From the NCBI GenBank assembly GCA_030390025.1, contig CM059453.1, positions 7,378,001-7,442,000 of the forward strand: a DNA stretch of 64,000 nucleotides, given 5' to 3'. This DNA is from Squalus acanthias. Taxonomy: Eukaryota. Position 1 is the stretch's first letter. Each line of letters begins with the position of its first letter. Positions 148-61,030 of the stretch are shown here, piece after piece. The notes under the pieces were generated by a model that did no database searches, was not told where the DNA came from, and worked only from the letters and a program-made list of their open reading frames with translations. The translations under genes were made by a program, and so were the position numbers.

Positions 148-528
148 CCTTTTGTAGTGTTCAATGTTCTGTTGTGATGCCAAAAGTTGTGTCGGCGGTG
201 TTGGGTTCTTGTGCAGAGATCCCGTGTAAATTTGATAACATAGGCTACATCGCCAACCTGAACGGGCGGTGGATAAAGAGGAATCCTGGTCCTGGAACAC
301 ACAATGACTCCATTATCTATGATTCGAATGATCCATTCAGGCAGCATTATAATTTTAGTGGCAGAGCTGAGTTCAAGGGCAACCTTGAAAAAAGACAATG
401 CTCCCTCCTGATAAAGGATATCCGAAAGAGTGATGAGGGTGCATATCAGTTCATCACAGCCATCACCTCGGGCAGAAATTCTATAACACATCGCATTGCC
501 CGTTCCGAAGTCTTTCTTTCTGTTTTAG
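148..528 (+). CDS. Gene A V-set Ig exon
   Basis: ctcag|cct...ttag|gtgag, 381 nt, phase 1-1; GSCAEIPCKF...W...[18 protein letters not shown]. Confidence 0.9.
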
Positions 529-15500: not shown

Positions 15501-17403
15501 TTAGCGATGCTCCTGCCAGTGGAATCAGTTTCTCTTTTATTGTGTATTAAAATTCAGCAGTATTTTTATCACCAATATCTAATCTCCCTTTAACATTCTC
15601 TACCCTAAGGAGAACAACCCCAGTTTCCCTGGACTCTTTCTTTAAGTGCAGTCCCTCATTCCTCCTACAATTCTAACAAATTTGTTCTGTACCTTCACTA
15701 ATGCATTGACGTCCTTTCGACGGTGTTATGCACAGAACTGAACAGAATTCGCCAGCCGAGGCATAACCACTGATGTACAAATGTTCAGCGTATTTTCCTT
15801 GTCTTCATAATCTGTAACTCAATTTATAAAAACCCGGATCAAGTATGCTATTTCGAAGCCTTAGAATCATTTTACAGTACAGAAGGCGAATATTCGGTCC
15901 GTTGTACCTGTGCTGGCTCTTTGAAAGAGGTTTCCAAATTAGTCCCACATCCCAGCCTTATCGATTCGTTCGGATATACAATTGCACGTTCTTTATTTCT
16001 TGCATCAAAACTTAACAACGCTCATCTCATGAATCAGCACCATTAGAAATCTTAACAGGTGCAGACAGCGCACTGCCATTGCATTCAGGTCCATATTTTT
16101 TTTAATTCGTTTATGGGATGTGGGCCACGCTGGCAAGGCCAGCATTTATTGACCATCCCTAAATGATCTTGAGAATGTGGTGGTGAGCCCCCTTCTTGAA
16201 ACGCTGCACACCGTGTGGTGAAGTTAGTCCCACAGTGCTGTTAGGGAGGGAGTTCCAGGATTTTGACCCATCGACGATGAAGGATCAGCGATATACTTCT
16301 AAGTGAAATGGGGAACTTGGAGTGGGCGGTGTTCCCATGCGCCTGCCGCCCTTGTCCTTCTAGGTGGAAGAATTCGCGTGTTTGGGAGGTGCAGCTGAAG
16401 AAGCCTTGGCGAGTTGCTGCAGTGCATCTTGTAGATGGTACACACTGCAGCCACGGTGCGCCGCTGGTGGAGGGAGTGAATGTTTAAGGTGGTGCATGGG
16501 GTGATGATCAAGTGGGCTGCTTTGTCCTGGATGGTGTCGAGCTTCTTGAGTATTGTTGGAGCTGCACTCATCCAGGCAAGTGGAGAATATTCCATCACAC
16601 TCCTTACTTGTACCTTATAGATGGCGCAAAGGCTTTGGGGAGTCGGGAGGTGAGACAATCGTCGCAAAATACCTAGCCTCTGACCTGCACTTCTTACCAC
16701 ATATTTGCAATAGCTCTGTTGTGGAGTATTGTAAAACAACACTCGGCACAAGGGTTTAGATCGACAGACAAGTTGTCTTTATTACACCGGTGGAGAGACA
16801 GTCTGCTCTGTCCTAGCCAGACGTTTCCAAATTGTTACAGCAAACACTACATTTTTATACATTACAATACACATGACCATCTCATGCAAAATATATTCCA
16901 GCCACCTGATTGGATCTTGGCCCGCATGCACCTTCACGGATTGGTTACGAATCTTAATATAAGCATGTATAAGCTGCCTCTTCGAACAATCACTCAAATT
17001 GCTGAATGCTAATTAAAAGATACCTTGGAATGCGACCTAGGTAATAAAGTTCTTACGGGTAGTTGAAATGCTGGACATCCTGTCTCCATTTAATTGTTTT
17101 ATATCTCTCCAAATGTCAGCTGTCGTTGACCACATCGTTATAGATGTGGCACTTCATGTTAGCCCTTACCTTTTTACAGTATTCAGGGAAACTGCCAGCA
17201 ATGTAATTTTAACTCTTTCCCCACAGCAGCTCCACATCTAACACAAATGACTTCCGTTACAGAGGGGCCATCAGTGTACAGAGGCTGGTCGTGGCGCCGC
17301 TCAATCGACTAAACCAGATCAGCGTGACGAGATTGTGTATGCGACCGTCAATTTCTCAAACTTCCGCAAACATGATCAATATATTCAAAATGAGGAGAGC
17401 TGA
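148..17403 (+). CDS. Gene A: Siglec/MAG-like inhibitory Ig-superfamily receptor (V-set + 3 C2-set + TM + 2 ITIMs), 5'-partial
   Basis: Exons 148-528, 3594-3905, 9565-9822, 10745-11032, 11856-11949, 14337-14424 and 17263-17403, all with AG/GT boundaries and compatible phases (1,1,1,1,2,0). Siglec-type Cys pattern (GSCAEIPC, E-strand [14 protein letters not shown]). ITIMs VIYSTV and IVYATV. Leader exon is upstream of the window. Confidence 0.88.
588..1097 (-). mobile_element. CR1 3' fragment (gene A only)
   Basis: TQRVVRSWNLLP...FKGRLD plus ctctatg tail; absent from the gene B intron. Confidence 0.82.
2231..2633 (+). mobile_element. Non-coding Penelope-type pLTR fragment (second family) carrying a hammerhead
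   Basis: Absent from the paralogous gene B intron; TSD caaatt (2225-2230, 2634-2639); hammerhead motif at 2504-2541. Confidence 0.7.
2504..2541 (+). ncRNA. Minimal type I hammerhead motif
   Basis: UCAC-CUGACGA-A-GGUGC(AGCA)GCUCC-GAAAG-CUU^GUGA; palindromic AAGCUU helix III; one stem II mismatch. Confidence 0.68.
3594..3905 (+). CDS. Gene A C2-set Ig exon 1
   Basis: tatag|aaaag...aaat|gtaag, 312 nt; EKPEI...CSVTHNCP...W...DGNILGC. Confidence 0.9.
3912..8979 (-). mobile_element. Full-length degenerate CR1 LINE (ORF1 with Cys-rich region and SGNH esterase; ORF2 APE + RT)
   Basis: IVIGDS / VHIGTND / DGLHL (7521-8444); VGDFN, LDLIL, GVPQGSVLGP, FADD; (ctctatga)-type 3' tail; TSD taagt (3907-3911, 8980-8984); absent from gene B. 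Confidence 0.92.
4695..5301 (+). mobile_element. 5'-truncated CR1 nested in the full-length CR1
   Basis: [10 protein letters not shown]...[14 protein letters not shown], ttctatgt tail, opposite orientation to the host; probable aaatg TSD. Confidence 0.85.
9565..9822 (+). CDS. Gene A C2-set Ig exon 2
   Basis: ttag|atgga...caat|gtaag, 258 nt; EGSSLLLYC...W...[12 protein letters not shown]. Confidence 0.9.
10745..11032 (+). CDS. Gene A membrane-proximal Ig exon (MAG domain-5-like C-x8-C-x-C)
   Basis: ttag|ataaa...aagg|gtacg, 288 nt; [19 protein letters not shown]...ISCVAANEHG. Confidence 0.88.
11856..11949 (+). CDS. Gene A transmembrane exon
   Basis: tttag|gaata...aaag|gtatgt; GIFSTTTVLIIGGGATGFVILIAVVLTLKIQR, hydrophobic stretch with no charged residue in its core. 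Confidence 0.88.
13066..14227 (+). mobile_element. CR1 3' fragment (pre-duplication)
   Basis: Degenerate RT C-terminus plus ttcttatg tail; same insertion present at 55114-56284. Confidence 0.85.
14337..14424 (+). CDS. Gene A cytoplasmic exon with ITIM VIYSTV
   Basis: ttcag|aaag...tgaa|gtaagt, phase 2-0; [30 protein letters not shown]. Confidence 0.87.
15210..15850 (-). mobile_element. Old CR1 3' fragment (shared with ~57255-57850)
   Basis: Degenerate CR1 3' sequence (aaggagaacaaccccag etc.); boundaries approximate. Confidence 0.6.
16099..16699 (-). mobile_element. 5'-truncated L2/CR1-group LINE (gene A only)
   Basis: AGQRLGILRR...VRSVMEYSPLAW...LDTIQDKA; TSD catattt (16092-16098, 16700-16706); empty site in gene B at ~60822. 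Confidence 0.82.
16717..17228 (-). mobile_element. Solo LTR (512 bp)
   Basis: TGTTGTGG...CCACAGCA termini (7/8 inverted), 4-bp TSD gctc, minus-strand AATAAA ~16780, absent from gene B. Confidence 0.75.
17263..17403 (+). CDS. Gene A last coding exon with ITIM IVYATV
   Basis: ctaac branch site ~17238; ttacag|AGG; RGHQCTE...DEIVYATVNF...NEES*; AATAAA at 17505-17510, conserved in gene B. Confidence 0.85.
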   Translation, partial: RGHQCTEAGRGAAQSTKPDQRDEIVYATVNFSNFRKHDQYIQNEES

Positions 17404-17808
17404 GAATATGCAGCAATGAAACATAAGTGAAAGTAAACAGTTGTTAAACTGTTAGCGCGGATGGTCTTGAAACTGACAATAGTTTAAAACACCTGATAAC
17501 ATAAAATAAATCAAACATTGTATTGAAATAAGCATTATCAGAATGGCGATCGTTGAGACAATCGGTTGCATGTTTTGATTTAAGTTCTCAAAGTGAAGTT
17601 CATTGGAATACAGTTGAGAGTGTGATTTTTTCATCAATGTAACTTTTCATTTTTTTTTAATCTATTCTTTGAAAATAACAATTTTACAAACCATAGCTAG
17701 CATCGTCTCTCTCTGTTAATCTACTGTAATCGATTGGCCCGCAGTATGAACCCTCACTAACGGGGATCAGGTTGCCAAAAAAGCTTGCAATGAAACACCA
17801 GAGACAAT

Positions 17809-26246: not shown

Positions 26247-26264
26247 CTCTTTCTCTCTCCACGG

Positions 26265-29448: not shown

Positions 29449-29466
29449 CTCTTTCTCTCTCCACGG

Positions 29467-32613: not shown

Positions 32614-32650
32614 AGTTCTGACGAAAGGTCATCGACCTGAAACGTTAACT
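32614..32650 (+). ncRNA. Minimal type I hammerhead ribozyme (copy 3)
   Basis: Identical motif, a further 3202 nt downstream. Confidence 0.8.
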
Positions 32651-33354
32651 CTCTTTCTCTCTCCACGGATGCTGCCTGGCCTGCTGAGTTTTTCCAGCGT
32701 TTTCTGTTGTTATTTTGGAATATAATGGAGGTGCTTTGGTGGTGTATATACAGAATAACAGAAACCCGGGAGGGAGTTACAGAGTGGAATCTAATCGAGG
32801 AGTCGGGGTGTATACATAGAATAACGGGTACTCGGTGCGTCAGTTACAGGCTGGAATCAAATCGAGGGGTTCGGGTTAATTATGTCCTAATTGCCTCGCT
32901 GGATTATATCAGAGCTAACAAATGCGTTCTGAGGGTGAAGACTGCTCCAGGTTTAAGCTGGTCACATGCTTCAATCGCAGGTCTGTGCAAGGTTGGCAGC
33001 TGCCACACTATTAATGGCATCGACGCTAAATGGAATGAAACAGCCAGTGATCCAATTCCTGATCACTTTCGAGTGTACCCTTCCCACCTGGTCACCGGGC
33101 CCGCATCTTGGCTGCGTAAGCCCAGGGTCAGGCACAACTGTGAGCACGGAGCCCATTGGCAGCCAGAGCGTTTGAGTTAATAATGTTACCATGTGTTCTT
33201 TGTTTATCTGTACCACGTTTTCTTATTGGATCGGTACCACGTGTTCTTGGTGTATCTGTACCACGTTTACATTGTCTACCTGTAACCCGTTTTATTTCTG
33301 TATCTCTACCAAGTGTCCTCTTTTATATGCAGCACGTGTTGTTTCTGTTGCAAA

Positions 33355-38728: not shown

Positions 38729-41700
38729 TCATTTGCTTTTAATTGCGGCGTATTCACTGGACTCTTCGTGCTGGAGATATCGCTTCTGCTTTCGAACGTT
38801 TGAAACACTGACAGCTGCATACAGGTCCTCTTCACTTTGAGTTGACTGGTTTGATGGAGCCCCTCTCACACCAGTGTTTCTATATTTGTCTTGGCTCTGT
38901 AACAGAAGGTATTGCGTTAGATGTGGAGGTACTGAACCGTGTGAGAGTGCGCTTACTGTACCAGAATAACTCGTTTTATTCCATCACTGCCGCCATTCTA
39001 ATTATCCTATTACGCTACTTCTGCCTCCAAAAGGAAACCTTGGGCTTCTGCTGGCCCCGAGGACCGGCACGCAAAGAGTTATTGCCCCCTCCTTATCACT
39101 TAGCCGACTGATTTAGATAGCGTCGCGAACGTTCTGAGGAGCGGTACCAAACAACATTTGAGACCGACCAATAATGTCCCTTTATAAATGTATTAGGTTC
39201 ATATACCACTTACATTGTACAGAAATTTGTGTGGAGCTGTTTGCGGTACCCAGGTTATTTTCAGCCACGCATCAATACTCCCCCTCATCTTCAGAACTAA
39301 TGCTGTGAAATATCGGCTTTCGTTCACCGGTGGAAGACCTGCTGATCACTTTATCATCTAGGAGCAATGCTAAACTGACAGGCGGGATCCCCAGTGCCGT
39401 TCAGTATAATAATAACGATCTTCCTTCCACTGTTACAACAGAGCAATTGTCGCTTGGTTTCCACAGTGCATCTGAAACACGCAAGAACATTGGTGTTACA
39501 GGAAAATGTCGGAGCAGAAGTTTAGAAACCAATCCGGTTGAAAACCAACGAAGAATATTAAAGCAGATATGGTGTTTATATTGTCAACTGTAAATTGAAA
39601 AGCCAGCTTGAGATTGTTGGTGTTCCATCGACAAGCTTATTTAGATCTGAACCATGCTTTAACTCAACCTTTCCTCTTCTTCTCTTCAAGGAGTTGTAGT
39701 GACTTCCTGGATGTGGTTCTGCTCCACCGATACGTCACTCAAGCGGCCATTCCTCCCAGAGCAAGAACAGTGGGCTCTCACATCCCTTAAGCAGAGCTGT
39801 TGAGGCCAATTGTAGTAACCCGACCATCGCCCCAGCCAACTCGACACAGACCATCTGTGTCAGGTACTCTCTGGCTGCAACTATATCAGGAATTAGGAGC
39901 CTTTGGAATAACATTTGACGTAAAAGACAACGATGGAGCGACCAATATTACTCTATGGGTCTGTGTCAATGTTAAACAATAGAACTTACAATAAATCTCG
40001 GACAGTCCATTTGATTAATTGATTATAGAAACATACGCCATTCTGCACTTCGAGTCTGTTCCACGAATCAATTAGATCATGGTTAATCCATATCGTAACT
40101 CCGTCTACCCGCCTTTGCTTTAATGTAACCCTTAATAGCCTTAACAAATAAAAAATCTATCCATCACAGTTTTGACATTTTCAATTTTCCAGGCCAGCTA
40201 TCACTCCCCTTAGAATAAGGACAAGTTTGGATCCAATTTACCAACAGGATAGTAGAATGAAGGTTACAGCAGTTACTTACAGTCCAGATGTAAGTGTTTC
40301 TTGAACGGTAACCACGACACCATCAACAACAAGCTTACATCACATCATTTTCCCTTTACGGTCCAGTGATAGAGTGAACGTGAATGTTGATGAAACCGTC
40401 CAGGAACCATCGACATTTTTCCACTGTGTCTTGAAGATTTAATCTCTTGTAGTGAATGAAGATTATCCTCGTCCTGAATCCACATCAGTTCATGTTTGGC
40501 AGACGGGAAACTGGTGGTGACTGAGCAGGTCAAATGTGCTGTTTGTCCAGCAATCAGGTCCCCAGAGACTGATATCCATGACTTATCTGTAAGGAGAGAA
40601 AAAAATTCGCGTCACTGTGGCTTGCAATACAAAAAAAAGTGGAGTGAAAGTCAAGGCGATTCAGCCCAACGCCTGAGATAATATCTTGAATAAAAATTAC
40701 TTTTTTTTGCACTTGATCTCTTGTGACGGACACGAACTCGATGGGCCGAATGACCTCCTTCTGTGCCGTTATGATTCTATGGTGCAGGGGAAGGAGCCTA
40801 TTGGCAGTTATTAATTAACGGTTACGGAATCAATCGATTGATATATGTGTTCTTGAACCGAATTATCACTCACTATATCACATGAATTATTCATTGCTGG
40901 CCTGTTTCTTATAGCTCAGTCACCACTCTATTGCACACAAGTGATTTAACTCAACATTAGGTCTGACAAACATAGAAAACTGGGTCCAAGATTATGTTCC
41001 ATATCTGCAGTTGGGATAGAATCTTGGATACTCTTATACTATTGGCTCAGTGTCACGTGAAACGCTTAATTTACCCTATGAGTCACAGGGGTGAATTTAA
41101 CACTTGCTTCTCATTAATTTGACCTCGTTTAAGGTCGTGTAGGGAGCCCTGCAGATGGTCTTCAGGGAGAGGAAAAGGTTAACTATCCTCGTTTGTTCCC
41201 ATTAACAACAGAGCGAAAGTGCAAAGATATCAAAAGAAAGCAAGACCCGGTTAGGGGTTCAAGCCGCACTTCAGAGACTAAAGCACAAGCTGTAGCCTGG
41301 CACACCATTGCAGTACTGATGCAATGCTACAATGCTGGAGATGCCATCTTATGGATGAAACGTTAAACCGATGTCCCGTCTTCCCTCACAGGTGGATGTA
41401 AAATATCCCAATGTATTATTTCAAATGCCCCGTGTCCTGGTTAACATGTTGCATCAACCAGCACCTAAAACAAATCATCTGATCCCTATTGCATTGCCGA
41501 GATATCGCTCCTATCCTTAAATGTTGTCCACTTATTCCCTCTCAGAAGTACAAACCCTGACATTTTTGTCTTGAATCCACTAAGGATTGAATTTTGACCC
41601 GCCCGTCTTTACATCTGAATACAACATTTAGTGTTTCTCTTTCTAACTGAACATTAAAGCATACTTCTGTAAGTGTGTAAGAATGGCAGTGCTGAATATC

Positions 41701-44249
41701 TGTTCAGGTCAAAACATAACAAGTCAACTGGTTCAGATGGGATGCATCCTCGGTTGCTCAAAAGCTAGGATGGATATAGCAGAAGCTCTGACCACAATCT
41801 TTCAATCCTCCTTGGATATTGGAGTGGTACCAGAAGACTAGAGCATTTCAAATTTTACACCGCTGTTCAAAAAAGTGGAGACGGATGAACCTTGTAACTA
41901 AAGCTTAATCAGTCTAACGTCAGTGGTGAGAAAGCTAATTAAGTCAACTGTGAAGGACGAGATTAATTCTCACTTGGAGACGCATGGATTTATTAGGGAC
42001 AGCCAGCAGGGCTTTGTTAAAGGCAAATCGTGACTGACTATCCTGATTGAGTTCTTTGATGAAGTAATAGAGAGGGTTGATGAAGGTAATGCAGTAGATG
42101 TTGTATATGTGGACGTTCAAAAGGCATTAGATGAAGTAACTCATAACAGATTATTCGGGAAATAGAAGAACAGTGTATTTAAAGGATGGTGGCCACGTGA
42201 TTACGAAATTGGTTAACGGATATGAGGCAGAGAGTCGTGGTGAACGGCTGCTTTTCTGATATGAGCGAAGTATGCTGTGGGATCCGCCAGTGGGTCGATA
42301 TTAGGACCATTGCTATTCTTGTTCTATATAAATGATCTGGACGTGGGTATTGGGAGTAACGTTTCGAAGTTTGCTGGTGAGACAAAATTTGGCAACGTAT
42401 TATATATTGAGCATGATTATAGCAGACTTCAGGAGGACATCTACAGACTGTTAAAATGGCCAGGCACATGGCAGATGCAACTTACTGCGGATAAGTGTGA
42501 AGCAGAAATGCACTTTGGGAGAAATATATGGAGAGATCACATACTCTAAATAGTAATATTTTGAGGGAGGCTGCAAGAACAGAGGGACATGGGGTACATA
42601 TTGACAAATCTTTGAAGATGGCAGGGTAAATTGATAAGGCGTTTAAAAAGAAAGTTCATAGGATACTTCGGTTCTTTTTACATGGGGCATTGAAAACAAA
42701 AACAAGGAAGTCATGCTCAAGTTTCACAAACCTCTGGTTTGGCCTCAGCTGGAGTTTTGTGTGCAGTTCTCGGCACTACACTTGAGGAAGGAGATCAAGG
42801 CCTTGGAGGAGGTACAGAAGAAGTTTGCCAGGTTAATACCAGGGACGAGGAAGTTCAGATACGTGCAGAGATTGGAGAAGTTGGGCTTGTTCTCCTTGTA
42901 GCAGAAAAGGATAACGGGAGACCTAACAGTGTTATTCAAAAGTGAGGGGTTTTGATAGAATAATTAAGGAGAAACCATTTCCTCTGGCTTTTGGGTTGGT
43001 AAACAAAGATCTCACATTTAAACCAATTGGCATAAGAACTCGTGAGGAAATGGGGAAAAATGTCTTCTCCCAGAGGGTTGCTAAGATTTAGAATGCACCA
43101 CCTGAAAGGATGGTGGAATCCGTTTCAATGGGGAATTTTTAAAAGCAATTGGAGCTGTCCTAAAACAAGGCTGATTTACAGGGTTCTGTGGAAAAAGATG
43201 GGGAGTGGGACTGAATTGTATAGCTGTTTCAGAGAGCCGGCACAGGCGTGGTGGGCCGAATGGCCTTCTTCTGTGCTGTAAAATTCTATGATTCAATGAT
43301 TCTATTCTATAACACACTCATTGGTATCATGCAGTGTACCAGCCCTGCCGCTGTAGCCTGTGACTTCGGCCAAGAGTAACAAGAAATATTTACATTTAAG
43401 CTCAAGTTAAATGGCACTGAGGAGATGGACGATAAACTAAAAAGGAACAATTCAAAAAACATACATAAAACAGAAAGGGTGATCTAAGACCCGGTAGAAT
43501 ATCCTTCTATATTATTGTGGGCGGTGATGACCTTCAATATAAAATAATAGGCACCTTGATCGCGCTTGCTGATGTCCTTTAACCTTAACCTTTCTTTATA
43601 AATTCGCTGGTGAACTCAGCTCGACCGCTATATTTCAAGGGCACTTTGTCTGAATCCCGGGAATCATAGATAATCGAGACCCCTGAATTTCCAGGATGAG
43701 GACCACCCTTTAACCACATACCCTGTGGACTGCGTCCAGAGGTGGGATAATCAGATGTACACTGATCTCTGCACATGAGCCGTTCACCGCCGACACCTTC
43801 CACGGCACCTTCACAGACCATCGTGAACTATGGACAACTGATGAAAAAATAGAAATTATACACTCATTCAAATCCGCAATAATATAGCAATTAAAAAAAA
43901 CCTTGACCGACAAGTTAAAAACTATTAATTTAACTTTTAAACACCCACTAACATATTCATTAGTACATCTAATGAAATTCATGCAATTTTCTCCAAAACT
44001 CTTTAAATTTTATTAAATATTACATTGCAAACCAATAATTCATAGTGCAATTATCAAATGAATCCTTTATAATACCTAATAAAGTTCTGAATAAAATATA
44101 CATTAAATACCCACTGTCTGAGTACACAAATCATTGACTAACCATGTGCTATGGCTAAAACATTGTTATTTTGTGTGAAATAAATTATTAAAAATGAAAA
44201 TTTTACCTTCGCTAAATATCAGAATGGAAATAAATCTAATACTCTTCAT
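38729..44249 (-). pseudogene. Pseudogene C: divergent Siglec/MAG-like paralog
   Basis: Leader 44249-44207 (MKSIRFISILIFSE). V exon 43837-43465 with frameshifts and stops. C2 exon 40586-~40281 with frameshift and stop. C2 exon 39471-39214 with two TGA stops at Cys and Trp codons. Intact-frame terminal exon 38896-38729 (EDLYAAV...SSEYAAIKSK*). No proximal-Ig, TM or first cytoplasmic exon recognisable. Confidence 0.85.
41680..43310 (+). mobile_element. Degenerate CR1 in pseudogene C intron
   Basis: Fragmented RT (GSILGPLLF, KFAGET, LEFCVQF) and attctatg tail. Confidence 0.82.
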
Positions 44250-47082: not shown

Positions 47083-47125
47083 ATGAGGAGTTGCGTGCTG
47101 CTGCCTCTCATAATGTTGACAGAAG
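47083..47125 (+). CDS. Gene B signal-peptide exon
   Basis: gccATG Kozak context; [14 protein letters not shown] + G|gtac, 43 nt, phase 1; same size as the leader of pseudogene C. Confidence 0.82.
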
Positions 47126-50100
47126 GTACATTTCTGATGTTTTTTTTACAATTTCTGCAAGGGATTTATATCTTGTGGGAAAGGAACAGCAAAATAACGA
47201 ATATGAATGACTTTTTTGTTATTGATTTCAGAACTTGTGAAATAGGAATTTCATGATTGTTTAACGCGTGCATTGTTGTTGTATTATAGCGTATACAGCC
47301 TATTCAAATAATATTTAAATACAGGAATTTCAAAATAATTTTTTATTGTAAAGCACATTTAATAAAATTTACTTCATATTGTTTGATTGATTCAAATGAG
47401 CTTCAATAGATGTTTAATATTTATTTTAATCAATATTTTAATATATATTTAATGAGAATTTTTATTGGGCGTTCGCTTACTTGTTAGTGGAAATGTATTC
47501 GTTTTTTAGATGAGTATTAATTTTTTATATTGCCGGTTCATAAATCTCCCATCAAATAGGTATTCCTATGGCCAATTCCATAGGTGTTGTGATTGGAAAT
47601 GATTCAGTATTTTTTTCTTGATTTTCAAGAGACCTTCACTGATATTTGAATTGCTATTGTGATGGGCGACTATTTGTCAATTAACAAATACTTTAATGGA
47701 TGACAAAGATGCTGAAATGCATTTTGAGTGACTAATGAAAGGGTGTCTAAATTATTTTTCTCAGTTGTTTTTAGTGCTGAATTCTCTGTGATGATACCAA
47801 AAGCTATGTCGGCGGTGGCCGGTTCATGTGCAGAAATCCGCTGTAGGTTTGGTTATCCAGACTATCGGAGAATCGGTGATGTGACGTGGTTAAAGAGGGA
47901 ACATGCTCCTGGTAACCAAGGTTACTCCATTATCTATGATTCTAAAGATCCATACAGGCAGCATTATAACTATGGTGGAGGAGCTGAGTTCAAGTGTAAC
48001 ATTGAAAAAAAACAATGTTCCCTCCTGCTAAAGGATATCAGGAAGAGCGATGAGGGTACATACGAACTCAGCATCGCGAACGCTTCGGCCTGGTCTATTA
48101 ATGGACGTCGCAGTCAGCGTCCGCACGTATTTCTTTCTGTTTTAGGTGAGTATTCCATTTGATCCTTTTTTTGTACATTTTCACTCCAGTGCTTCAGTAT
48201 GAATCAACCTATGTGCAAAGTGGCCATATATTATAATATTCCTTACCGATCTCAAAGGGTAGTTGAAACAAAGGGTGCAGGGATACTGATAAGGGTCGCA
48301 GATGTCTGATATCCTAAACACAGAAGTATACAGACATTACAACAGTAAAACAGGCCATTCGGCCCAGCCAGTTTGTGTTGCTGTTGGACCTTCACATGAG
48401 CAACACTCCGAATCGCATTTGCCTGCTCAGTTCACATATCCCTTTATTGCAATTCCCTTCCAACACGTGTCGAACCAATTAAGAAATATCCACATGAGGC
48501 TAGATTCGTACTTGTTGACTGAACCTAAAACTGACGTTGTAGGTCGTACTTACAATACATAATCCAGCAGCTCATTATTTCCAATGAAATGAAAGGTAAT
48601 GAAACTAGGCCGGTAATCTGGAATGAGAGATTTGACCAGGGCGGCCATTTCAAATTCTACTTCAATCTGCTTCTATCTCCTCTGTCCTGTTGCTTAATAA
48701 GTTTAAGCACTTCTGTCAAATCATCCCAAAGTCTGTTTTATCCTTATAAGATCTGCCCCAATTATTAAATACTTGCTTGGTATTTATTCATCCTCATACC
48801 AGCCAGAAACTACGCGAAGCCGCCCTAAATCCTTCCTCTAGTCTGGAGCCCAATAACCGCATTAACACTCCAACTGTGAACTGACTACTGCTCTCGCTAA
48901 AATCTCCACTGATCTCGAATTTATATTATTGATCTCTTGCCATTAAACCCAGAGCTCTAGAAACATCTTCATACACTTTCCCACTGGAAGTGCCACTTTT
49001 ACTCTCTCATGAACCTGACCCCAAAATCCTCCGCTCTTCCACATCTCCCAGCTTTCTACCGTTCAAATTAGCATCTCCCAACTCATATATTCTGACCTTT
49101 AATTATATCTGCATCTTCTGTCCCCATTCTACTATATCTCCTGTATCCGTTTGTAACTCGCTATAGTTCTCTATTTATCAACTGGGAGTCGTACTTGCAA
49201 GTTTGGCATGGGTGTCAAACTGGAGATATTGGATTCGCCTCTAATTGTACACCACGCCCAATTTTCATTTTGATAGAATCCAATTAATTCCTGACGGGAA
49301 ATTTTGACATCATTCTCTTGCGCGCCTCTCCAAATTATTGATGCACACAGTGAGTAGAAGAAATCCCACAGGACAACCCTGTGGGACACCGTACTGGATC
49401 CAGCTGTTCTGAGCAACTGCGCTTAACAGCGACTCACTACATCGTCCCTTCTGAACAGTTTGTATTGTAATTTCTCCCTAATCCTTAAATACAAACCTCT
49501 TAATATCTTCTCCAATAATCTCCTGTGTTTACCGTCTGCAATCGCTGCTTGATTACATTTCAAATTACTTCTTGGTGAAGCGTCTTTTGACGCCGCGAGT
49601 ACTTAAAAAGCGTTGAATTAATTCAGTCTTTGTTCGTGCCTTTCCCTATCCAGCGCTCATTTACCCCGCTTTTAATTAGATCTTAATTAAAAATTAGATA
49701 TTTCAGTTACGTGAAAAACTGTTCAAGTTATCATTTATTTTTTCATTCAAATTCCACGGCTATAAATATTATTTCTGCTGAAGCCTTCTTCAGATTTACA
49801 CGCGAGGAACCTGGGCTGGTTCTCCAACCCAAGGTGGTGTTACCCGTCGTTTGTCTGGTCTTTCTATGTCTTGAGCATTGTCGTTCTATATTGACGTTTC
49901 TTGACAGCAGAATCGAGATCTCTCTGGGTCTGCATTAATCACCATCACATAGGCAATTGCTGGTGCAGAACGAGGTGTACGAAAGGATGAAATATTCGTG
50001 ACATTTTGAGGAGATAACGTTAATTCAAAGTCCAGCGTGCAAAATTTGTTCACTGGACAATATCCATAATACAAATAATTTGGAGATAATAAGACTCATG

Positions 50101-53100
50101 GTTATATTAAGTGTGGCCATATGTTAACCTATGAGCCATAAAACTGCTTTACAACTGCGAAGAGTAATTCAGAATGGTGAACACACTTGCAAGACGTAGC
50201 AGAGAGAAATGAACAAAATGTGATTTTCTTGTTATTTCTATCTCAGATGTAGTTGTAAGCTATCAATCGCCCGTTTTAACATTGAAATGTACCTAACAAG
50301 CTGTTTTTCTCCCGTTTTTATAGAAAAGCCAGAGATTGCAGGTTATGGGGAATTGATCGCTGGTCAAAAAGCACGATTGAAATGTTCCGTCACCCACAAC
50401 TGCCCGGATGGCAAACTGAAACTGAAGTGGATTAATTACGATGTGTCCCTTCCTCCCCCAATGGATACTCAAGATGGAGCAGAAATTAGCAATGAAAGTT
50501 CAGGTTCTCGGACAGTTTCATCCGTGATCACCTTTACACCATCATCTGCTCATGACGGGAAAATTCTGGGATGCACAATGCTAATTGATGGTATCCCAAC
50601 TCCTTCGGCACAAAATCTTACCTTGGAGATTAAAGGTAAGTGTCCGATCTAAAGTAAACAGATTTATCCTGTAGGACAACGGGCTCCAAATTTTACAATT
50701 TTCCAACAAGTAATTTATTTGGGGTGAGAACTGCATCAAAGAATGCATCATGAAAAGCTTAGCCTCTGTACCAGGAGAGCTCACTTCAATAATCAAAAGT
50801 TCGGAATGCCTCTCATCTAATGCTCATCAGTCAGATTACATTAGAAACATTCATATCCATGAATCAATGATTTTGCCTACAACAGATTTTTTAATGTGAT
50901 TGTTAATCTTTATTCTAAGAACTTCCAGTCAGGTTCTGAGTTTAGTCAGTCATAAATGGAAGCCATGATGCGGAGATGCCGTTGTTGGACTGGGGTGGAC
51001 AAAAATGAGAGGTCGCACAAAACCAGGTTATAGTCCAACAGTTTTATTTAAAATTACGAGCTCGTAATTTTAAATAAAACTTTTGGACTATAACCTGGTG
51101 TTGTGCGACCTCTCATAAATGGAAGGAACAAAGGCCATGCCAAGTTAGGATCTGAAACGATGATACCCAATCTCAGCTCTGGGTGGGCTTAATAAGAACT
51201 TAAGAATTCGGAACAGGAGTAGGCCATACGTTCCTTCGAGCCTGTTCCGCCACTCCGGCAATCATGGCTAATCATCAATCTGAACTCCAATTTCTCACCC
51301 GATCCCCATACCCAATATAATGAATAAAGTAGGGGCTCAATTATGCTTATTCGACAATCACATTTTGCATCAACGGCTGTTTCAGATGGACTGGAATTCC
51401 CAACGTTCTACTGCTCTATAGTAGCTGTGGAAGGAAGTTCATTATTATTATACTTCACGGCCTGTGGGAAACCCCTGGTCAGTTCAAGATGGGTGAAAAA
51501 TGGTGAACAGATCAGCAGGTCTTCCACTGGTGAACTAAAGCAGATATTCCACAGCATCCGTTCTGAGGACGACGGTGAATATTGGTGCATAGCGGAAAAT
51601 GCCGTGGGCACCACAAACCGTTCCACACAAATGTCTGTACAATTTAAGTATGTATTAATTTATCAATTAGATAGCAGCCTTTCAGTTCACGAACTCTGGA
51701 TTAAATACCAATTTTCTCTTGCCTGCTTGCTGGAAGGCGCCCATGTGCACGAGTTAGGAATAGTTTCACCCCTTCCAGCGGAAATAGCGGGAAACTACCT
51801 CGATGGCAACAAAAATGGAAACTAACCCGGCATCTCGCTCAGTATGACAGGAGTGGAATATGGCACAATGTCTCATAAATGCAGCAGGTCTTACATTTAT
51901 GAGGTTGCGACACAAGCACATTTACTGGGACCTTTCCTCTACAACTAATTGTTCATAAATTATATTCGTCGTCCTAAATAAGCAACTTTCCAATCCTTAG
52001 AACTGACTTGCAGGAATTTGATGAGCACAAATTCTCTCCAAAAAAAGTGTGATAAAATTTTGTTAAGCCATCTCCTGTTACTTGTATTAATGTTGATTGA
52101 ATAGTGTAATATTCTCGCGAATTGGTTCTTTGAAATGTCTCCTTGAGAGCCGGACGTTCATTGAAGAATCACATCAGTCCACCACACATGAAGATGTTTA
52201 AAACAGGACACAAAGTGAAGACATTGAAATAAATTGACCTTTTAAAACAATGACGTTTGAGACACCTTTTTGGGTATACTATGCAGAATCAAATCTCTGA
52301 GCTAGCTCCGTCTGAGGGACCCTCACAACATCTGTCAGGAGATGTATTGATGGACTGAACACACATTTATTTAATGTTGATTTGTTCCTAACGAGCTCTC
52401 CTGTTATAAGTGGAAATATAATAAAACATGAACTGGTGCAACATAGGCTGCTTCATCTTAAAATATAACAACCAGAACTATTATTGTTATTTCAACTCAT
52501 TACTTAATTGTATTTCGACACTACGGCAGTTTACATGATCATTTACTGTTGAAGTTTCCATTTTTTGTAGATAAACCCACAATTTTAGCAGGCCCGACAT
52601 GCACCAGCTCTGAGAATTGGACGAATTGCAGCTGCCGGATCAGAGCCAATCCCCCGGGAAACATCACGTGGGGCCTCAATGGGAGAATCCTCACTGGGGA
52701 CAGGTCAGATGTGGAAATCATCTCCTGGGCGGTGAATAGTCGACTCATGGAGAGCTCCCTGAGACTGACTCACCCAACCGGAAACGGAAACCTGATCTCA
52801 TGTGTTGCAGCAAACAAGCACGGTGATTCTGTCAGTAAATACCATCTCCACTCGAAGGGTACGTGTTTACTCTATCTGTAATGTAAAACTATAAGGGAGT
52901 TGGTCCACCACTGGTCAGTCACTAATTGAACGGTGTTAGTGTCAGCACATACCAGCTCCATTCAGCAGGTCCATACTGGATCTCTCTCGAATTAGTATTA
53001 GGACCGCTTTCCATCAGTGGTCAATCTCCGACTGAAATGTGCGGTCGGCATTATCCATTTTAACTTTCATTCTTCTGCTACTTGTTCGGTTTATATTTTC

Positions 53101-56100
53101 AAGATAAATTGAAATCATCTGAGCAGCTGAATTAGCCAGTAATCTTGGAAAACAAATTCTTCTGATTTAAGATAAACCCTTTAGAAATTCCTAAATTATC
53201 TCAATACATGATAGCAAACTGCAATCTACACTTTTGTAGCTATATGCTCATTTCTATCTTATTCAGACTAATTTGGGGATGTAGAACCGATATTCAATAA
53301 CCGAAGCGAAATTAAATTATCGCTATAGATTATGAATCTTACCGCTGTAACTTGTGAACTTGGCGGGCCTGTATTCCGATCAGATTAAACCAACGCTTTT
53401 TCCTTGGGTGGGTTGTGGAGTGAACTTAATTTGTCAATTGAGATTTTTACATCAGTGAATCTTAATTTATTGATTCCAATTTACGCCAGGCCGCAACACA
53501 GGGATAAAAGGCTTTTACGCAAGGATCATCAGGTTTTGACAAGTGGAGTACATAATTTACAATTAGCTTTGTGATCCAATCATGAAGGAAACTTGCTTCA
53601 TCACACTCATAAATGTGCTTCCAAGATTGTTGTTTAATCCCAAATTCCTAATACAGAGCAATGTTATCCGACATTTTAGGAATATACTCCAGGACAATCC
53701 TCCTCATAATAGGAGGAGGAGCCATTGGGCTTGTTATTCTAATTGCAATCGTGATCACGCTGAAGATAAAAAGGTAGGTGTGATTATTAATTATGTAGAA
53801 TTAAGTTTCAACGCAAACCTGCATCAGAACGTTCATGTATCAAAATCTCCTTTAAATTAAACTCCCGTGAGAAAAGTGTGCATCAGCCGAAACTGGTAGG
53901 AAGGTCAATCATCCCTGACCATTCGCTCGCATCTCCAAGCATCACATACAGATTAATATTAGTGGCTGCTTGAATCAGGCTGTCTGTACATTCTTCCTGT
54001 TCCATTATAGGGGTCTGTTTCCTTCTGTTTAAAGTGGAAATGTTTGGACTTCTGATCGCTGGCGCTCTTTGTGCCGGGGAGTGTTTACAATTCCCGTGCA
54101 ATCTGGATAAAGTTTTCAGCAGGCTCAAAGAATGGGCAAACAATCCTTTCAGTTTTTTTCTGCTGCTGGTTTTATGGGGCATCCTCACACGAGCTTCCTT
54201 GTCATGACTGACTCTCAGCAAAACAATACACCAGATTGACACTTAATCTCTATCAATCAAGCTAGTACAGCAAACAGTAAACCAAAAAGCAAACAGTAAA
54301 ATTAACGTGACACAGACGTTTACAGTCGTTGTTAAGGTTGTTTCGCTCAAGGAGTAGAAAATTAAATTTCAAAATTGGTGTGACTGAAGTGCTAAAGTAT
54401 GATACAAGCAGTTATTCATGTTGCGCTTGTTATCTTATTCTTCCCAGTGATTCAAGCTATTTCGTCTGACTAGCTTTCTTTCAAAGCTCTGGACAGACTC
54501 GCTGCTTTATATCGACAGGCTGATAATTACATTCAGAATTGTGACCGGCTCCAACTGAATTCAAATAACACCCAATTAGGTTTACAATCGGCTGCCAATC
54601 AAATTTATCCTTCAACCAATCGGACAGGAGGTGTACAATTGAAATCTATGACGCCGCCCCTCAACAGACAATGTTTCGACAACAACCGCAACAGCATGAG
54701 CCAGAACACTCTTTTAGCTTTTAATCCTTCCTGTACCATGATATATTTAAAGAAGGCAATTCCATGCTTAATAATATCAACTACTCAATGATCGCAAAAA
54801 GATTGATGAGGAATATTGATGTATTCCTAATTTCTAACTTCAATGTGTTGAAGTGGTCTACCTAATAATAGAAAGGACTGCGTTGACACATTGAACCACT
54901 TGCATCTGCTATTTTCCGAGGTTGAAATCATTAATAAACCTCCCACTGACCGTTATTTATCACACTCAACTTTCAGCTAGCGCAATCAGCACAGTATCAT
55001 TAACACCAATCGTAGATACATTGAAATGCACCCCTTTTGAAATGTTGGCCTGTGGAAATTGAAATGAATTGGGTTGCGGATCTGGTCTGTGCTTTTTGGG
55101 AGAAGTAAATGACACAAGGTGCCAAATAAAAGGTTATTACATAAGATTAGGGCTCATGCTGTTGGGGGTTATATAGTTGCATGGATAGAGGATTGGTTAA
55201 CAGACAGAAAACAGTGTCGGTATAAACGGATCTTTTTCAGGTTTGCAGGCTGCAACATGTAGGTTGCCGCAATGATCAGTGTTGGGGCCCCAGCTATTTA
55301 AAATCTATATTAATGATCTAGATGAAGAGACCGAGTGTAATGTATCCAATTTTTTTGCTGATACACAACTCGTGGGACAGTAAGGTGTGAGGAGACAACA
55401 AAGCGTCTGCTGAGGGATATAGATAGACTAAGTGAGTGGGCAGTAAGGTGGCAGATGGAGAATAATGTAAGGAAATGTGAGGTCATTCACTTTGGTAGGA
55501 AGAATAGCAAAACAGAATATTTTTTAAATGGTGAGAAACTTTCAAATGTTGGTGTTCAGGGAGATTTGCGTGTCCTCGTGCAAGAAACACAGAAAGCTAG
55601 CATGCAGGTACAGCAAGCAATAAGGAAGGCAAATGGCATGTTGGCCTTTATTGTTAGGGGGTTGGAGTCTAAGAGTAAGGAGGTTTTGCTACAATTGTAC
55701 AGGGCCTTGGTGGGACCACACCTAGAGTACTGTGCACAGTTTTGGTCTCCTTATCTATGGAAGGATATATTTGCCTTGGAGGCGTGCAACGAAGGTTCAC
55801 CAGATTGATTCCTGGGATGAGAGGGTTGTCTTACGATGACAGATTGTGAAGAATGGGCCTATATTATCTGGAGTTTAGAAGAATGAGAGATGATCTCTTT
55901 GAAGCAGACAAGATTCTGTAGAGGATTGACAGGGTAGATGCTGTCAGGCTGTATCTCCTGGCTGGAGTCTCTAGAAATAGGGGGCATAGTCTCAGGATAA
56001 GTGGTAGGCCATTTAAGACGGAGATGAGGAGTAATTTCTTCGCTCAGAGGGTTGTGAATCTTTGGAATTCTCAGCCCCAGAGGGTAGTGAATGCAGAGTT

Positions 56101-59100
56101 TTGGATTATATTCAAGGCTGAGATAGATAGATTGTTGGACTCTTGGGGAATCAAGGGATATGGAGATTGGGCGGGAAAATGGAGTGCAGTTCGAAGATCA
56201 GCGATGATCTTTTTGAATGGCGGAAAAGTCTAGAGGGGCCGTATGGCCGACTCCTGCTCCTATTTCTTATTTCTTATGTTCTTAAGTCTTTCCTGTCCCC
56301 CTCACGTCCTTCATCGCGCAGGCGCAGTGTGCTTTCACTAAACATTCCAGTTAATTAATAGAAGTGCCTCATTTGCATTTGTTATTATTCAGGAAGAAAC
56401 ATGGAGAAGCTGCACGTGTCTCCGATGCACACGATGATTTGGTGATTTACAGTACGGTGCAGAAGGCACTAAACGATGACGTAAGTGATGCCAAGCTGGG
56501 CTGACAATTGTAGGATGTTTGGTGTACTTTCAACCGGCAAGTGACCAATAAAGGTCAATACCCATCAGATAAACGGGAGTTACAGAAACGTGTTGGCCTT
56601 TAATGGAGGATTAACCGCCTCACGTCGCGAAGAGTGCAACAGAGCTACAAACTTTACATTAAGTGACCTACTAAATACATTTAGAAAGTATTTCTCACAT
56701 TGGCGTTCCTTCTCAAAGCAAATTATTTCTTTAAGAATGCGTTTCCAATGTTATTTTACCTCCTGCCAATTAGGTTTCACGTGTTAAATGTCCAACACGA
56801 TCACAAAGTGTTGGCAACACAGAGGGGATAAACATTTTAGTTCCTCAGGTGCAACTCCGAATTGCATCTTGCTGCCGATGTGGTTCCCATGTTCCTCACC
56901 TTTCATTCAGAAGGTTGTGGCTTCAAGCTTCGCTCCAGCATTTGAACCTATAATCTGGGCTGAAACTTCATTTCAAAACTGAAGGAGTGCAACATTGCCT
57001 GAAGTCCCGTTCTTTCGATTAGTAGTTAAACGTGGCCACCTTTGTTTCCTCCTATGGAGGGAAACGATCTTATGGTGCTACTGTGTGGAAGTTTGACAGT
57101 TTTCCCAGTGCCCTTGCAAACATTTCTCCCTCGATGAACACCAGCTAAAACGGATTAATTCGCCATTCATCCCATTAACTGGTTGTTGCATTTTTTCTAC
57201 AACAGCGGCAAGAATTCAAAATGTATTATTTGCATAGCATCGATTCGGTCTTAATAATCACAGAATCATGCAGTCCAGAATGAGGCCATTCAGCCCATGG
57301 TGCCTGTGCTGGCTGTTTGAAAGAGCTAAATAATTAGTCACACTACACTGATTTGGCCCTTAGCCCTGATTTAATTTGTTTTTCATATTCACGCATATAT
57401 CCATTTCCCTTTTTATAGACACTATTGAATCTACTGCCAGCGCCATAGAGGCAGCTCATTCCAAATCATTTGGTTCTTGTCCCAAATATCTTCAATCTGT
57501 GTCCATTGGTTAGCTACGTTCCTGCCAGTGGAAACAATTTCTCTAAATGTTGTATCAAAATTCTGCAGAATTTTGATCACCAATATCTAATCTCTCTTTA
57601 ACATTCTCTGCACTAAGCAGAACAATCCCAGTTTCCCTGGACTCTCCGTTTAAGTGCAGTCCCTCATTCATCCTATAATTCTAGCAAATTTGCTCTGTAC
57701 CCTCTCGAAGGCATTGACATCGTTTTGACAGTGTTATGCACAAAATTGGTGAAATACGTCAGCCGAGGGCCAACTTCTGATGTATAAAGGTTCAGAATAT
57801 TTTCCTTGTTTTCATAATCTGTACCTCAATTTATAAAAACCCGGATCACGTATGTTATTTAGAATCCTTAGAATTATTTTACAGCACAGAAGGCGGCCAT
57901 TCGGCCCGTTGTACCTGTGCCGGCTCTTTGAAAGAGGTTTCCAATTTAATCCCACACCCAAGCGATATCGACTCGTCCGGATATACAATTGCATTTTCTT
58001 TATTTCTTATAGAATCATAGAACAATAGAAGATATGAGCAGGATTAGGCCATTTGGCCCCTCTAGCCTGCTCCACCATTCAATGCGATCATGGCTGATCA
58101 TCCAAATTCACTACCCTGTCCCTGCTTTCTCCCCATATCCCTTGATCCCTTTAGCCTTAAGAAATATATCCAACACCTTCTTGAATCTATTTAATGTATT
58201 GTCCTCTACTGCCTTCTATGGCAGAGAATTCCACAGGTTCACCACTCTCTGGGTGAATAAATTCCTCCTCATTTCTGTCCTAAACGGCTTACCCCTTATC
58301 CTTCGACTGTGGCCCCTGGTTTTGGTCTCCCCGACCATCGGGAACATCCTTCCTGCATCTAGTTTGTCCTGTCCTGTCAGAATTTTATAAGTTTCAATGA
58401 GATCCCCTCTCATTCTTTTAAACTCCAGCGAGTATAAGCCCAATCGACCCAATCTCTCTTCATACGTCATTCCTGCCATGACAGGTATCAGCCTTGTGAA
58501 ACTTCGCTGAACACCTTCCATGGCAAGAACATCTTTCCTCAGATAAGGCGATCTAAACTGCACACAGTACTCAAGGTGTGGTCTCACCAAGGCCCTGCAG
58601 AACTGCAGCAAGACATCCTTGTTCCTGTACTAAAACCCTCTCCCGATGAAGGCCAACATACCATTTGCCTTCTTAACCGCCTGCTGCACCTGCATGCTTA
58701 CCTTGAGCGACTGGTGCACATGGGCACCCAGATCTCGTTGCACTTCCCCTTCTCCCAATCTATTGCCATTCAGATAATAATCTGCCTTTCTGTTTTTGAG
58801 ACCAAAGTGGATAACCTCGCATTTATCCACGTTATATTGCATCTGCCACGCTTCTGCCCAATCACCCAACCTGTCCAAATCATCCTGGAGTTTCTCTGCA
58901 TCCTCCTAGCAGCACACACGCCCACCCAGTTTTGTGTCGTCAGTAAACTTGAAGATATTACATCTAGCTCCCTTTTACAGATCATTAATATATATTGTGA
59001 ATAGCTGGGGTCCAAGGACCGCTCCCTGCGGTACCCCACTAGTCACTGCCTGCCACTCGGAAAAAGACCCGTTTATTGCAACTCTTTGCGTTCTGTCTGC

Positions 59101-61030
59101 CAACCAGTTCTCTATCCATTTCAATACCTTGCCCCCAATCCCATGTGCCTTAACTTTACACGCAAAAGGTAAATCATGCTTGACTAATCTACTGGAATGC
59201 GGGACCTTATCAAAAGCCTTTTGGAAGTACAAATACACGACATCCATTGGTTCTCCCTTTTCTATTTTAGCAGTTACATCCTCAAAAAATTCCAGCAGAT
59301 TAGTCAAGCATGATTTACCTTTTGTAAATCAATGTTGACTTTGTCCGATCCTGTCACTGTTTTTCAATTGCTCAGCTATTACATCTTTTATAATGGACTC
59401 CAGCATTTTCCCCACTACCGATGTCAGTCTTACCAGTCTGTAATTCCCCGTTTTCTCTCTACAACCCTTTTTCAATAGTGGGGTAATATTAGCTACCCTC
59501 CAATCCATGGGTACTGTTCCAGATTCCATCGAATGTTGGAAGATGATCAGCAATGCATCTACTATTGCTAGGGCCACTTCCTTAAGTACCCTAGGATTTA
59601 GATTATCAGGCCCTGGGGATTTATCGGCCTTCAATCCCTTCAATTTCCCTACCACCATTTCCCTACAAATACTGATTTCTTTCAATTCCTCACTTTCATC
59701 AGACCATATGTTCCCCAACATCTCTGGTGAGTTTATTTGTGTCCTCCTTTGTGAAGACAGAACAAAAATATGTATTTAATTGGCCTGACATTTCTTTGTT
59801 CCCCATTATAAGTTCCCCTGATTCTGACTGCAACGGACCTATGCTTGATTTCACTAATCTTTTTCTCTTCACATATCTATACAAGCTTTTACAGTCAGTT
59901 TTTATTTTCCCTGTAAGCTTACTCTGGTATTCTATTTTCCCCTTCTCAATTAATCTCTTTGTCCTCCTTTGTTCAATCTTAAACTGCTCCCAATCCACAG
60001 GGTTACTGCTTTTTCTGGCCAATTTATATGCCGTCTCCTTGGATCTTATGCTATCCCTAATTTCCCTTGTTAGCAATGGTTGAGTCACGCTTTTTGTTTT
60101 ATTCTTATGCCAAACTGGGATGAACAAATTCAGTAGTTTGTCCATGCGGGCTTTGAATGTTTGCCATTGCCTATCCACCGTCAACCTTTTGAGAGGCAGT
60201 GCCCAATCAATCCTAACCATCTCGCACCTCATACCATCGTAGTTTACTTTATTTAAATTCAGGACCCTACTCTCTGAGTCAACTACTTCATTCTCCATCC
60301 TAATGAAGAATTCTATCATATTATGATCGCTCCGACCCAAGGGGCCTCGCACAACAAGATTGCTAATTAATCCTTTCTCATTGCATAATACCCAGTCTAC
60401 GATGGGCTAATCTCTGGTTGGTTCCTAGCATTATTGGTCCAGGAACCCATCCCGTAAACACTCCAGGAATTCCTTCTCCACAGTATTGTTACTAATTTGG
60501 TTAGCCCAATCTATATGTATATTAAAGTCAACCAAGATGACTGCTGTGCCCTTATTGCATACTTCTCTAATTTCCCTTTTAATGCCATCCCCAACCTCCG
60601 CATTACTGTTTGGAGGTCTATATATCAGTCCCACTAACGTTTTCTGCCTCTTGTTGTTTCTCAGTTCAACCCATACAGATTCCACATCATCAGAGCTAAT
60701 ATCATTCCATCATGTCTTAACAACGCTCATCTCATGGATCAGTTCCATTAGAAAACTTACAAGGGAAAAAATAGTTTGATTTCTTCTGGTGCAGACAGCA
60801 CACTCCCATCGCATTCTAATCCATATCTGCAATAGTTCCATATCTAACACAAATACCTTCCATTACAGAGGGACGATCAGTGTACAGAGGTTGGTCGTGG
60901 CGCCGCACAATCGACTAAACCAGCTCAGAATGACGAGATTGCGTACGCGACCGTCAATGTCTCCAACTTCCGCAAACATGATCAATATATTCAAAATGAG
61001 GAGACCAGCGAATATGCAGCAATTAAATAG
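47083..61030 (+). CDS. Gene B: Siglec/MAG-like inhibitory receptor, paralog of gene A (3 cytoplasmic Tyr motifs)
   Basis: Exons 47083-47125 (leader), 47765-48145, 50324-50635, [51386-51643, donor mutated], 52571-52858, 53680-53773, 56393-56480, 60869-61030. Shared exons have the same sizes and phases as gene A, except that the last exon is 7 codons longer. Motifs VIYSTV, IAYATV, SEYAAI. 455 aa if the donor-less exon is skipped. Confidence 0.82.
47765..48145 (+). CDS. Gene B V-set Ig exon
   Basis: ctcag|ttg...ttag|gtgag, 381 nt; GSCAEIRC...[20 protein letters not shown]. Confidence 0.9.
50324..50635 (+). CDS. Gene B C2-set Ig exon 1
   Basis: 312 nt, AG/GT intact, 89/104 aa identical to the gene A exon. 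Confidence 0.9.
50963..51112. mobile_element. Fold-back insertion of the same pLTR family as 2231-2633
   Basis: ~55-bp arms centred on gag|ctc (51060/51061); TSD tcataaatggaag (50950-50962, 51113-51125); empty site in gene A at ~9292-9304. Confidence 0.78.
51386..51643 (+). pseudogene. Gene B C2-set exon 2, probable pseudoexon
   Basis: Homologous to 9565-9822, but the donor reads caat|ttaag instead of caat|gtaag and the B-strand Cys is replaced (LLLYF vs LLLYC). Confidence 0.75.
52571..52858 (+). CDS. Gene B membrane-proximal Ig exon
   Basis: tgtag|ataaa...aagg|gtacg, 288 nt, ~90% aa identity to gene A. Confidence 0.88.
53680..53773 (+). CDS. Gene B transmembrane exon
   Basis: [32 protein letters not shown]; tttag|...aaag|gtaggt. 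Confidence 0.88.
55114..56284 (+). mobile_element. CR1 3' fragment (paralog of 13066-14227)
   Basis: Same flanks and extent as the gene A copy. Confidence 0.85.
56393..56480 (+). CDS. Gene B cytoplasmic exon with ITIM VIYSTV
   Basis: ttcag|gaag...tgac|gtaagt, 88 nt. Confidence 0.87.
58008..60705 (-). mobile_element. 5'-truncated CR1 (APE+RT) in the last intron of gene B
   Basis: [23 protein letters not shown] fragments; absent from gene A at ~16000. Confidence 0.9.
60869..61030 (+). CDS. Gene B last exon (IAYATV and SEYAAI motifs)
   Basis: ttacag|AGG...[10 protein letters not shown]...ETSEYAAIK*; AATAAA at 61111-61116. Confidence 0.86.
   Translation, partial: RDDQCTEVGRGAAQSTKPAQNDEIAYATVNVSNFRKHDQYIQNEETSEYAAIK

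Follow-up and report, generated by a model that had tools for sequence, protein, structure and literature searches.

Silent and intronic divergence around the V-set exon of two putative Siglec-like receptor genes in Squalus acanthias

Divergence of the V domain in clustered immune receptors is an ordinary and known kind of receptor evolution. For example, passages of PMC6288428 on the mammalian CD33-related Siglecs describe a first Ig domain far more divergent than the adjacent C2 domain, repeated loss of the arginine, and gene conversion. The paired Siglecs 5/14 and 11/16 are also conversion mosaics. Sialic-acid binding by Siglecs needs an F-strand arginine (YxFR), as stated in parts of PMC13358205 and PMC10477811, and the latter part adds that the CC' loop sets specificity in mammalian Siglecs. 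For bony fish, the list in the relevant portion of one paper is limited to four regular Siglecs and includes no inhibitory CD33-related members (PMC7226832). Outside the Siglecs, duplicates such as the red/green opsins and RHCE/RHD are likewise similar overall but strongly diverged locally, also at silent sites (PMC3924837, in part).

A literature search at the level of listings, with most subscription journals outside its scope, found no description of an elasmobranch cluster of Siglec-like genes lacking the arginine. CD33rSiglec clusters in bony fish were reportedly described by Cao et al. in 2009. Here, two such genes of Squalus acanthias were compared along a 64-kb stretch of DNA, referred to below as the window.

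Gene anatomy and Siglec-like features

The window contained two same-strand copies, A and B, which were collinear over ~16 kb. On the opposite strand lay a third, decayed copy, C. Gene B spanned 47083-61030 on the forward strand. Its leader exon (47083..47125) carried the ATG and the start of a signal peptide and ended in a GT donor. This was followed by one V-set exon of the sialoadhesin type (47765..48145; 381 nt with AG/GT ends), three C2-type exons (domain 1, 50324..50635; domain 2, 51386..51643; membrane-proximal domain, 52571..52858), a transmembrane exon (53680..53773), and two tail exons (56393..56480 and 60869..61030). The Pfam matches of C2 domain 1 and of the membrane-proximal domain lay below the cut-off. 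When spliced at the positions matching A, gene B gave a frame that stayed open to the stop and encoded 541 residues.

Gene A, also on the forward strand, was truncated by the window start. It comprised a V-set exon (148..528; again 381 nt with AG/GT ends), C2 domains 1 (3594..3905), 2 (9565..9822), and the proximal one (10745..11032), a transmembrane exon (11856..11949), and two tail exons (14337..14424 and 17263..17424). Gene C (38730..43843, reverse strand) was a more distant pseudogene of the A/B family with frameshifts and stops. Its V part (~43843-43470), two C2 parts (~40590-40285 and ~39471-39212), and tail (~38895-38730) could be located, and its V part was ~42% different from A and from B alike. 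Elsewhere in the window, positions 25351-32715 held two tandem copies, 98.7% identical, of a retroelement that we take to be Penelope-like from its motifs; in the copy at 29320-32331, a frame of 1004 aa was open and had motifs resembling those of reverse transcriptase and GIY-YIG.

A and B had the single-pass layout of Siglecs, in which C2-set domains come after a V-set domain at the N terminus. Both V exons matched Pfam V-set and Ig_CD22 above the cut-off, and their best sequence matches were sialoadhesin and MAG (E 1.6e-10 for B and 1.7e-11 for A), with weaker matches to CD33. A fold search with an AlphaFold model of the V domain (mean pLDDT 78.6; residues 106-115 below 50) also returned the N-terminal domains of sialoadhesin/MAG as the best hits (E 2.2e-10). 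Cys21, 26, and 84 of the V domain aligned with sialoadhesin Cys17, 22, and 79, which is the Siglec cysteine pattern, and an F-strand cysteine was absent from the V domain of A and of B. The sialoadhesin pattern has no B-F disulfide pair. The features of antigen-receptor V domains were thus unmatched: the B-F disulfide was lacking, and one exon ran through the G strand to its splice donor with no separate J.

The essential F-strand arginine of Siglecs was absent from both copies. In A, Ile102 stood opposite sialoadhesin Arg97 in a gap-free alignment. In B, Ser102 was assigned to this position by the family alignment, and HMMER placed a gap there. Among 16 aligned homologs, this position held Arg in 5, Ile in 7, Thr in 2, Lys in 1, and Ala in 1. 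The tails carried VIYSTV (in the first cytoplasmic exon of B) and IAYATV/IVYATV, which fit the ITIM signature quoted in part of PMC7226832, and the last exon of B encoded IAYATV and SEYAAI motifs before the stop. Together with a transmembrane span without charged residues, these are the features of inhibitory-type Siglecs.

Judged on sequence, A and B appear to be tandem Siglec-like receptors with an ITIM-like tail, and both may signal as inhibitory receptors. Since they resemble the inhibitory CD33-related Siglecs but lack the arginine, they were filed as Siglec-like. Their ligands would differ from each other and would probably not be bound through the canonical sialic-acid site. A and B differed from sialoadhesin (Siglec-1) and MAG (Siglec-4) in having Ile/Ser in place of Arg97, only three C2 domains, an ITIM-like tail, and a tandem cluster arrangement. 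Like the CD33-related Siglecs of mammals, they are clustered inhibitory-type genes with the V domain diverging most and the arginine missing. Unlike in those Siglecs, the arginine is missing in a whole elasmobranch clade, and the likeness is one of features. In comparison with the paired Siglecs 5/14 and 11/16, the polarity was opposite: in those pairs the V domain is homogenized and the tails differ, whereas in A and B divergence was greatest in the V domain, and the tails of both were ITIM-like.

Divergence in and around the V exon

The initial annotation had counted 68/127 identical residues between the A and B V exons, 89/104 for C2 domain 1, and ~86/95 for the proximal domain. Codon-wise counting gave 68/126, 88/103 (89/104 with the split codon), and 86/95, and the loop peptides quoted there were exact. 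In the middle C2 domain, which had been left out, 68/85 residues were identical. Protein identity thus reached 85-91% for C2 domains 1 and 3, and it was 54% for the V exons (72.5% in nucleotides). The differences in V were clustered, as had been claimed (52 runs, permutation p=0.022), and a 40-codon core was conserved (p=0.006). By modeled segment, the identical residues numbered 1/8 in BC, 2/6 in the C strand, 3/10 in CC', 5/5 in C', 9/14 in C'-D, 20/24 in D-E-EF, 3/8 in F, 3/15 in FG, and 6/7 in G.

Several descriptions in the initial annotation could therefore be kept only in part. The length of the V exon was conserved, but the framework only partly so: A/A' (11/21 identical), C, and F were all variable, and gene B altered two framework sites conserved in the family (R72G and G77C). 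The differences were CDR-like for the BC and FG loops but not for the CDR2-equivalent C'-D segment; the CC' loop was variable instead. On the structural model, the variable surface is the GFCC' face of Siglecs with its CC' loop, plus the BC loop, and not the set of CDR1-2-3. The differing sites were also variable among other family members: scored on the other 16 rows of the V family alignment, conservation averaged 0.43 for the 58 sites that differ and 0.64 for the 68 shared by A and B (p=1.6e-6). The term "recent duplicates" holds only in a relative sense, with intron K2P distances of 0.12-0.20; slow evolution in sharks is described in part of PMC8455134.

The silent sites of the V exon were also strongly diverged. 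In a codon model, V dS was 0.51 (95% interval 0.34-0.78), compared with ~0.097 for the other six exons pooled, and equal dS was rejected (p=4.6e-8), as was a V dS fixed at the intron value of 0.18. An alternative, codon-shifted alignment of the BC and FG loops is possible, and the gap-free one used here may overstate loop dN and dS; the framework result is unaffected by this choice. Framework codons alone gave a dS of 0.39-0.45 (0.39 versus the rest, p=1e-4), and the V core (codons 54-99) gave 0.38 with a wide interval of 0.18-0.78. Two model-free counts agreed: silent differences at codons for the same residue were found at 14/67 in V versus 22/320 in the other exons (p=0.002), and four-fold sites differed at 7/28 versus 12/161 (p=0.011). 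As a separate observation, the silent divergence of the non-V exons (50324-61030 versus 3594-17424) lay below the intron value of 0.158 (p=0.002), with an omega of 0.89; later conversion of these exons and constraint on silent sites are both options.

The rise extended into both introns flanking the V exon. Upstream, 37/133 intron positions differed, compared with a background of 1663/10537 (p=5e-4), and none of 79 non-overlapping background windows was as high. Downstream, a change point was located at 48315, with a non-coding A/B difference of 0.28 before it and 0.154 after it; none of 300 permutations reached this value, and the alignment across the step was unambiguous. The tract of apparently older ancestry in B (47620..48315, forward strand) thus covered upstream intron, the V exon, and ~170 nt of intron 2. 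Its 5' end lies beyond the comparison because copy A ends at the window start, so that 133 nt of the upstream intron were comparable. Directly 3' of the change point, at 48328..48431, a high-copy repeat was present in both A and B; its summed contig depth in run X1 was 6318 versus 200-820 elsewhere, a depth that is not a copy number. Over ~15 kb, the intron divergence between A and B was fairly flat (block p 0.11-0.17), with K ~0.18. With pseudogene C as the outgroup, the DNA changes in A and B were symmetric (33 versus 32). In most intron blocks, transversions outnumbered transitions (~0.10 versus ~0.06; kappa ~1.3), an unusually weak transition bias.

Our preferred explanation, to which we give a probability of roughly 55%, is that the V module is older than the stalk and tail, conversion or unequal crossover having combined an old V lineage with a stalk and tail of younger age. 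From intron 2 to the 3' flank, A and B would descend from one duplication, whereas the lineages of the V exon plus flanking intron would have split at least twice as long ago. The exchange may have been resolved near the shared repeat, at ~48315-48430. Most amino-acid differences would then have been gathered over the longer time, at family-variable sites and on the GFCC' ligand face. The likely outcome would be two inhibitory receptors with similar signaling and different ligands. This explanation is favored by the raised V dS, the raised upstream intron, the step at 48315, and, as described below, the closeness of the A V domain to horn-shark proteins and the pairing of A with B in C2 trees. 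Against it stand the short upstream comparison, the wide dS interval of the V core, and a donor paralog that was not found within the 64-kb window. Pseudogene C was rejected as donor of the V tract of either gene, being equally far from both (p 0.42).

The main idea of the initial annotation had been that the genes arose by simple duplication, with all parts of equal age, and that the V loops then came under strong positive selection. When dS was forced to equal that of the rest of the gene, loop omega indeed rose to 6-7, and M2a assigned 10% of sites an omega of 13.6. In addition, sequence from one other organism differed from B at 29/411 positions in V and at 4/182 in a piece of C2 domain 1 (p=0.019), although the paralogs compared may differ. 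However, the equal-dS constraint was rejected (p=1.3e-6; framework alone, p=1e-4), the flanking introns were raised too, and M2a was not preferred over M1a for the two sequences (p=0.11). The raised framework dS and intron divergence thus largely refute selection after a simple duplication as the main cause, and we consider it very unlikely.

Omega for V as a whole was ~0.6 (0.61) versus ~0.88 for the rest, and equality was not rejected (p=0.29). For the loops picked in the initial annotation, with shared dS, omega was 1.92 (p=0.04), a circular result since they were chosen after the differences had been seen. Five partitions were fixed without using the A/B differences, and omega was compared with 1 on the two sequences A and B. 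The values were 1.10 for family-variable sites (p=0.76), 1.21 for CDR-equivalent loops (p=0.55), 1.87 for the BC, CC', and FG loops (p=0.054), 0.72 for all non-strand V codons (p=0.27), and 1.08 for the GFCC' face (p=0.78); none of the five was significantly above 1. The initial annotation had itself proposed that loop dN/dS of 1 or less, together with dS raised across the exon, would indicate an old exon replacement rather than selection. The second part was clearly observed, and the loop values of ~1-2 were never significantly above 1. Of the two causes it had offered, diversifying selection and patchwise gene conversion, recombination was favored, acting on the entire exon together with its flanks and not on single loops. 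The A/B data gave no support to allorecognition.

A role for selection is nevertheless conceivable in another form. The BC, CC', and FG loops evolved far faster than the framework (omega 1.87 versus 0.38, p=9e-9), so that long-term selection on the ligand face of V is possible. A and B could have been duplicated at the older date, with conversion homogenizing the stalk and tail and selection removing the conversions that crossed the ligand face. This genealogy is the same as that of the preferred explanation, with selection on V as the cause, and with two sequences a one-off swap and a divergence island kept by selection give the same signal. Such an island fits the loop/framework contrast and the low silent divergence of the other exons (12/161), as if these had been converted more recently, and a model in part of PMC3924837 predicts a divergence peak around a selected region. 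On the other hand, the flat introns are more suggestive of a single duplication date than of continuing, patchy conversion, and loop omega was not significantly above 1. We regard the island as a doubtful but serious alternative. The two explanations differ in whether divergence drops again 5' of V, which for A lies beyond the window. The opsin-type divergence peak includes ongoing conversion, whereas for A and B the 3' step is the known side.

Silent, replacement, and non-coding differences all rose together, as they would if the V exon and the DNA beside it had a higher mutation rate than the rest. However, in contigs from another organism, V and intron 2 differed from B equally (29/411 versus 45/616, p=0.9), and A was no more distant from the horn-shark protein P0002 in V (path 0.78) than in C2 domain 1 (0.67). 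A mutation hot spot therefore appears the least probable of the explanations considered.

Relatives in sharks and rays and condition of the copies

The homologs were 50%-identity representatives among the best 150 of 208 matches, a set without close orthologs for site models, and the 16 in the V family alignment were picked by hand out of 155 proteins. All 18 homologs that were looked up were shark or ray proteins. By automatic name, 16 of them were Siglec-, MAG-, CD33-, or Schwann-cell-myelin-protein-like, one nectin-4-like, and one hemicentin-1-like. XP_067883557.1, XP_067874525.1, and XP_067831324.1, whose names are likewise automatic, shared the domains, exon units, and tail motifs of A and B, with V identities of 38-62%.

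The V domain of A was closer to two horn-shark proteins (62% and 60%) than to that of B (54%). In the BC loop, A was identical to the horn-shark protein P0004 at 6/8 residues and B at 2/8. The loop of A is thus lineage-specific and conserved along its lineage, not freshly scrambled. In C2 domains 1 and 3, A and B were about equally far from the same outgroups. They grouped in the proximal-C2 tree as a starred pair (97/98, path 0.12) and also in the tree of C2 domain 1 (90/91). The V trees were poorly supported: the A-B path was 1.11 versus 0.69 for A-P0004, with a support of only 54/76 for A+P0004, and an AU test, run without the partial or mispredicted rows P0021, P0050, and P0076 (of 18), did not reject an A+B clade (p=0.35). 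The V branch of B was about threefold longer than that of A (0.70-0.73 versus 0.24-0.27 in protein trees), and relative-rate tests were skewed toward B for 6/16 outgroups at p<0.05. The unrejected A+B clade counts against an older V module, and the long branch and skewed rates also fit faster protein change in B.

Another reading is decay, in which B, and partly A, are losing constraint and the V changes are neutral. The V exon of B, with Cys21/26/84 in place, carried an extra Cys77 and had Gly72 for a conserved Arg, and contigs of runs X1, X6, and X5 all had Arg at codon 72. Its second C2 exon had lost the B-strand Cys (to Phe) and had TT instead of GT as its donor (51644-51645), which lies outside the range of the contig comparison; all five GT within the next 110 nt shift the frame. 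The corresponding donor and Cys were intact in A, in which an in-frame TGA in the last exon cut off the terminal tyrosine motif, which B and C retain. Moreover, C is already a pseudogene, and omega outside V was 0.89, not different from 1 (p=0.65). However, decay cannot lift dS fivefold in one exon only, and the V core had an omega of 0.26. In addition, skipping domain 2 is frame-neutral, so that the frame of B was open with or without this exon, and horn-shark P0002 also is without the domain. Decay as the source of the V differences is therefore improbable.

If the V module is indeed older than the stalk, the locus cautions clearly against reading recent selection into a single poorly conserved exon of paralogous proteins, since older ancestry can produce the same low identity. 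A more useful lead is the gene family itself: Siglec-like genes with ITIMs, often without the arginine, occur across sharks and rays, and A and B would be members as type I receptors in an elasmobranch cluster. We suggest only tentatively, from sequence comparison, that sharks and rays might have their own expanded, Siglec-derived inhibitory cluster. One clade of it would have given up sialic-acid binding and would swap whole V modules (and perhaps FG segments) onto shared stalks, to recognize ligands other than sialic acids, for instance self proteins or those of pathogens. Such a cluster would be an elasmobranch counterpart of the CD33-related Siglecs or of KIR/LILR, built on the sialoadhesin/MAG fold. 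If non-sialic ligands are bound, fast-evolving Siglec-type clusters would have arisen early or repeatedly in jawed vertebrates.

Public sequencing runs were compared with the B region over 47600-50700, with 40 of 657 letter differences displayed, and contained many contigs 85-99% like it. One contig from another organism covered the whole V exon without gaps over 411 nt, with 29 differences from B. Thus, V relatives closer to B than A is (72.5% in nucleotides) exist in these runs. Single contigs in 2/4 runs matched B to ~48062 and resumed at 48130-48173, as if the FG segment had been replaced or were too diverged to align. At 47846, 47980, and 48048, nearly all X1, X6, and X5 contigs differed from the window (Thr27, Arg72, and a silent change, respectively); the letters of B could be peculiar to this copy or individual, or could be assembly errors. 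At 48169, sequence matching intron 2 was immediately preceded by a leader-exon-like stretch in two contigs of run X1; this might represent a family copy without the V exon or a chance join.
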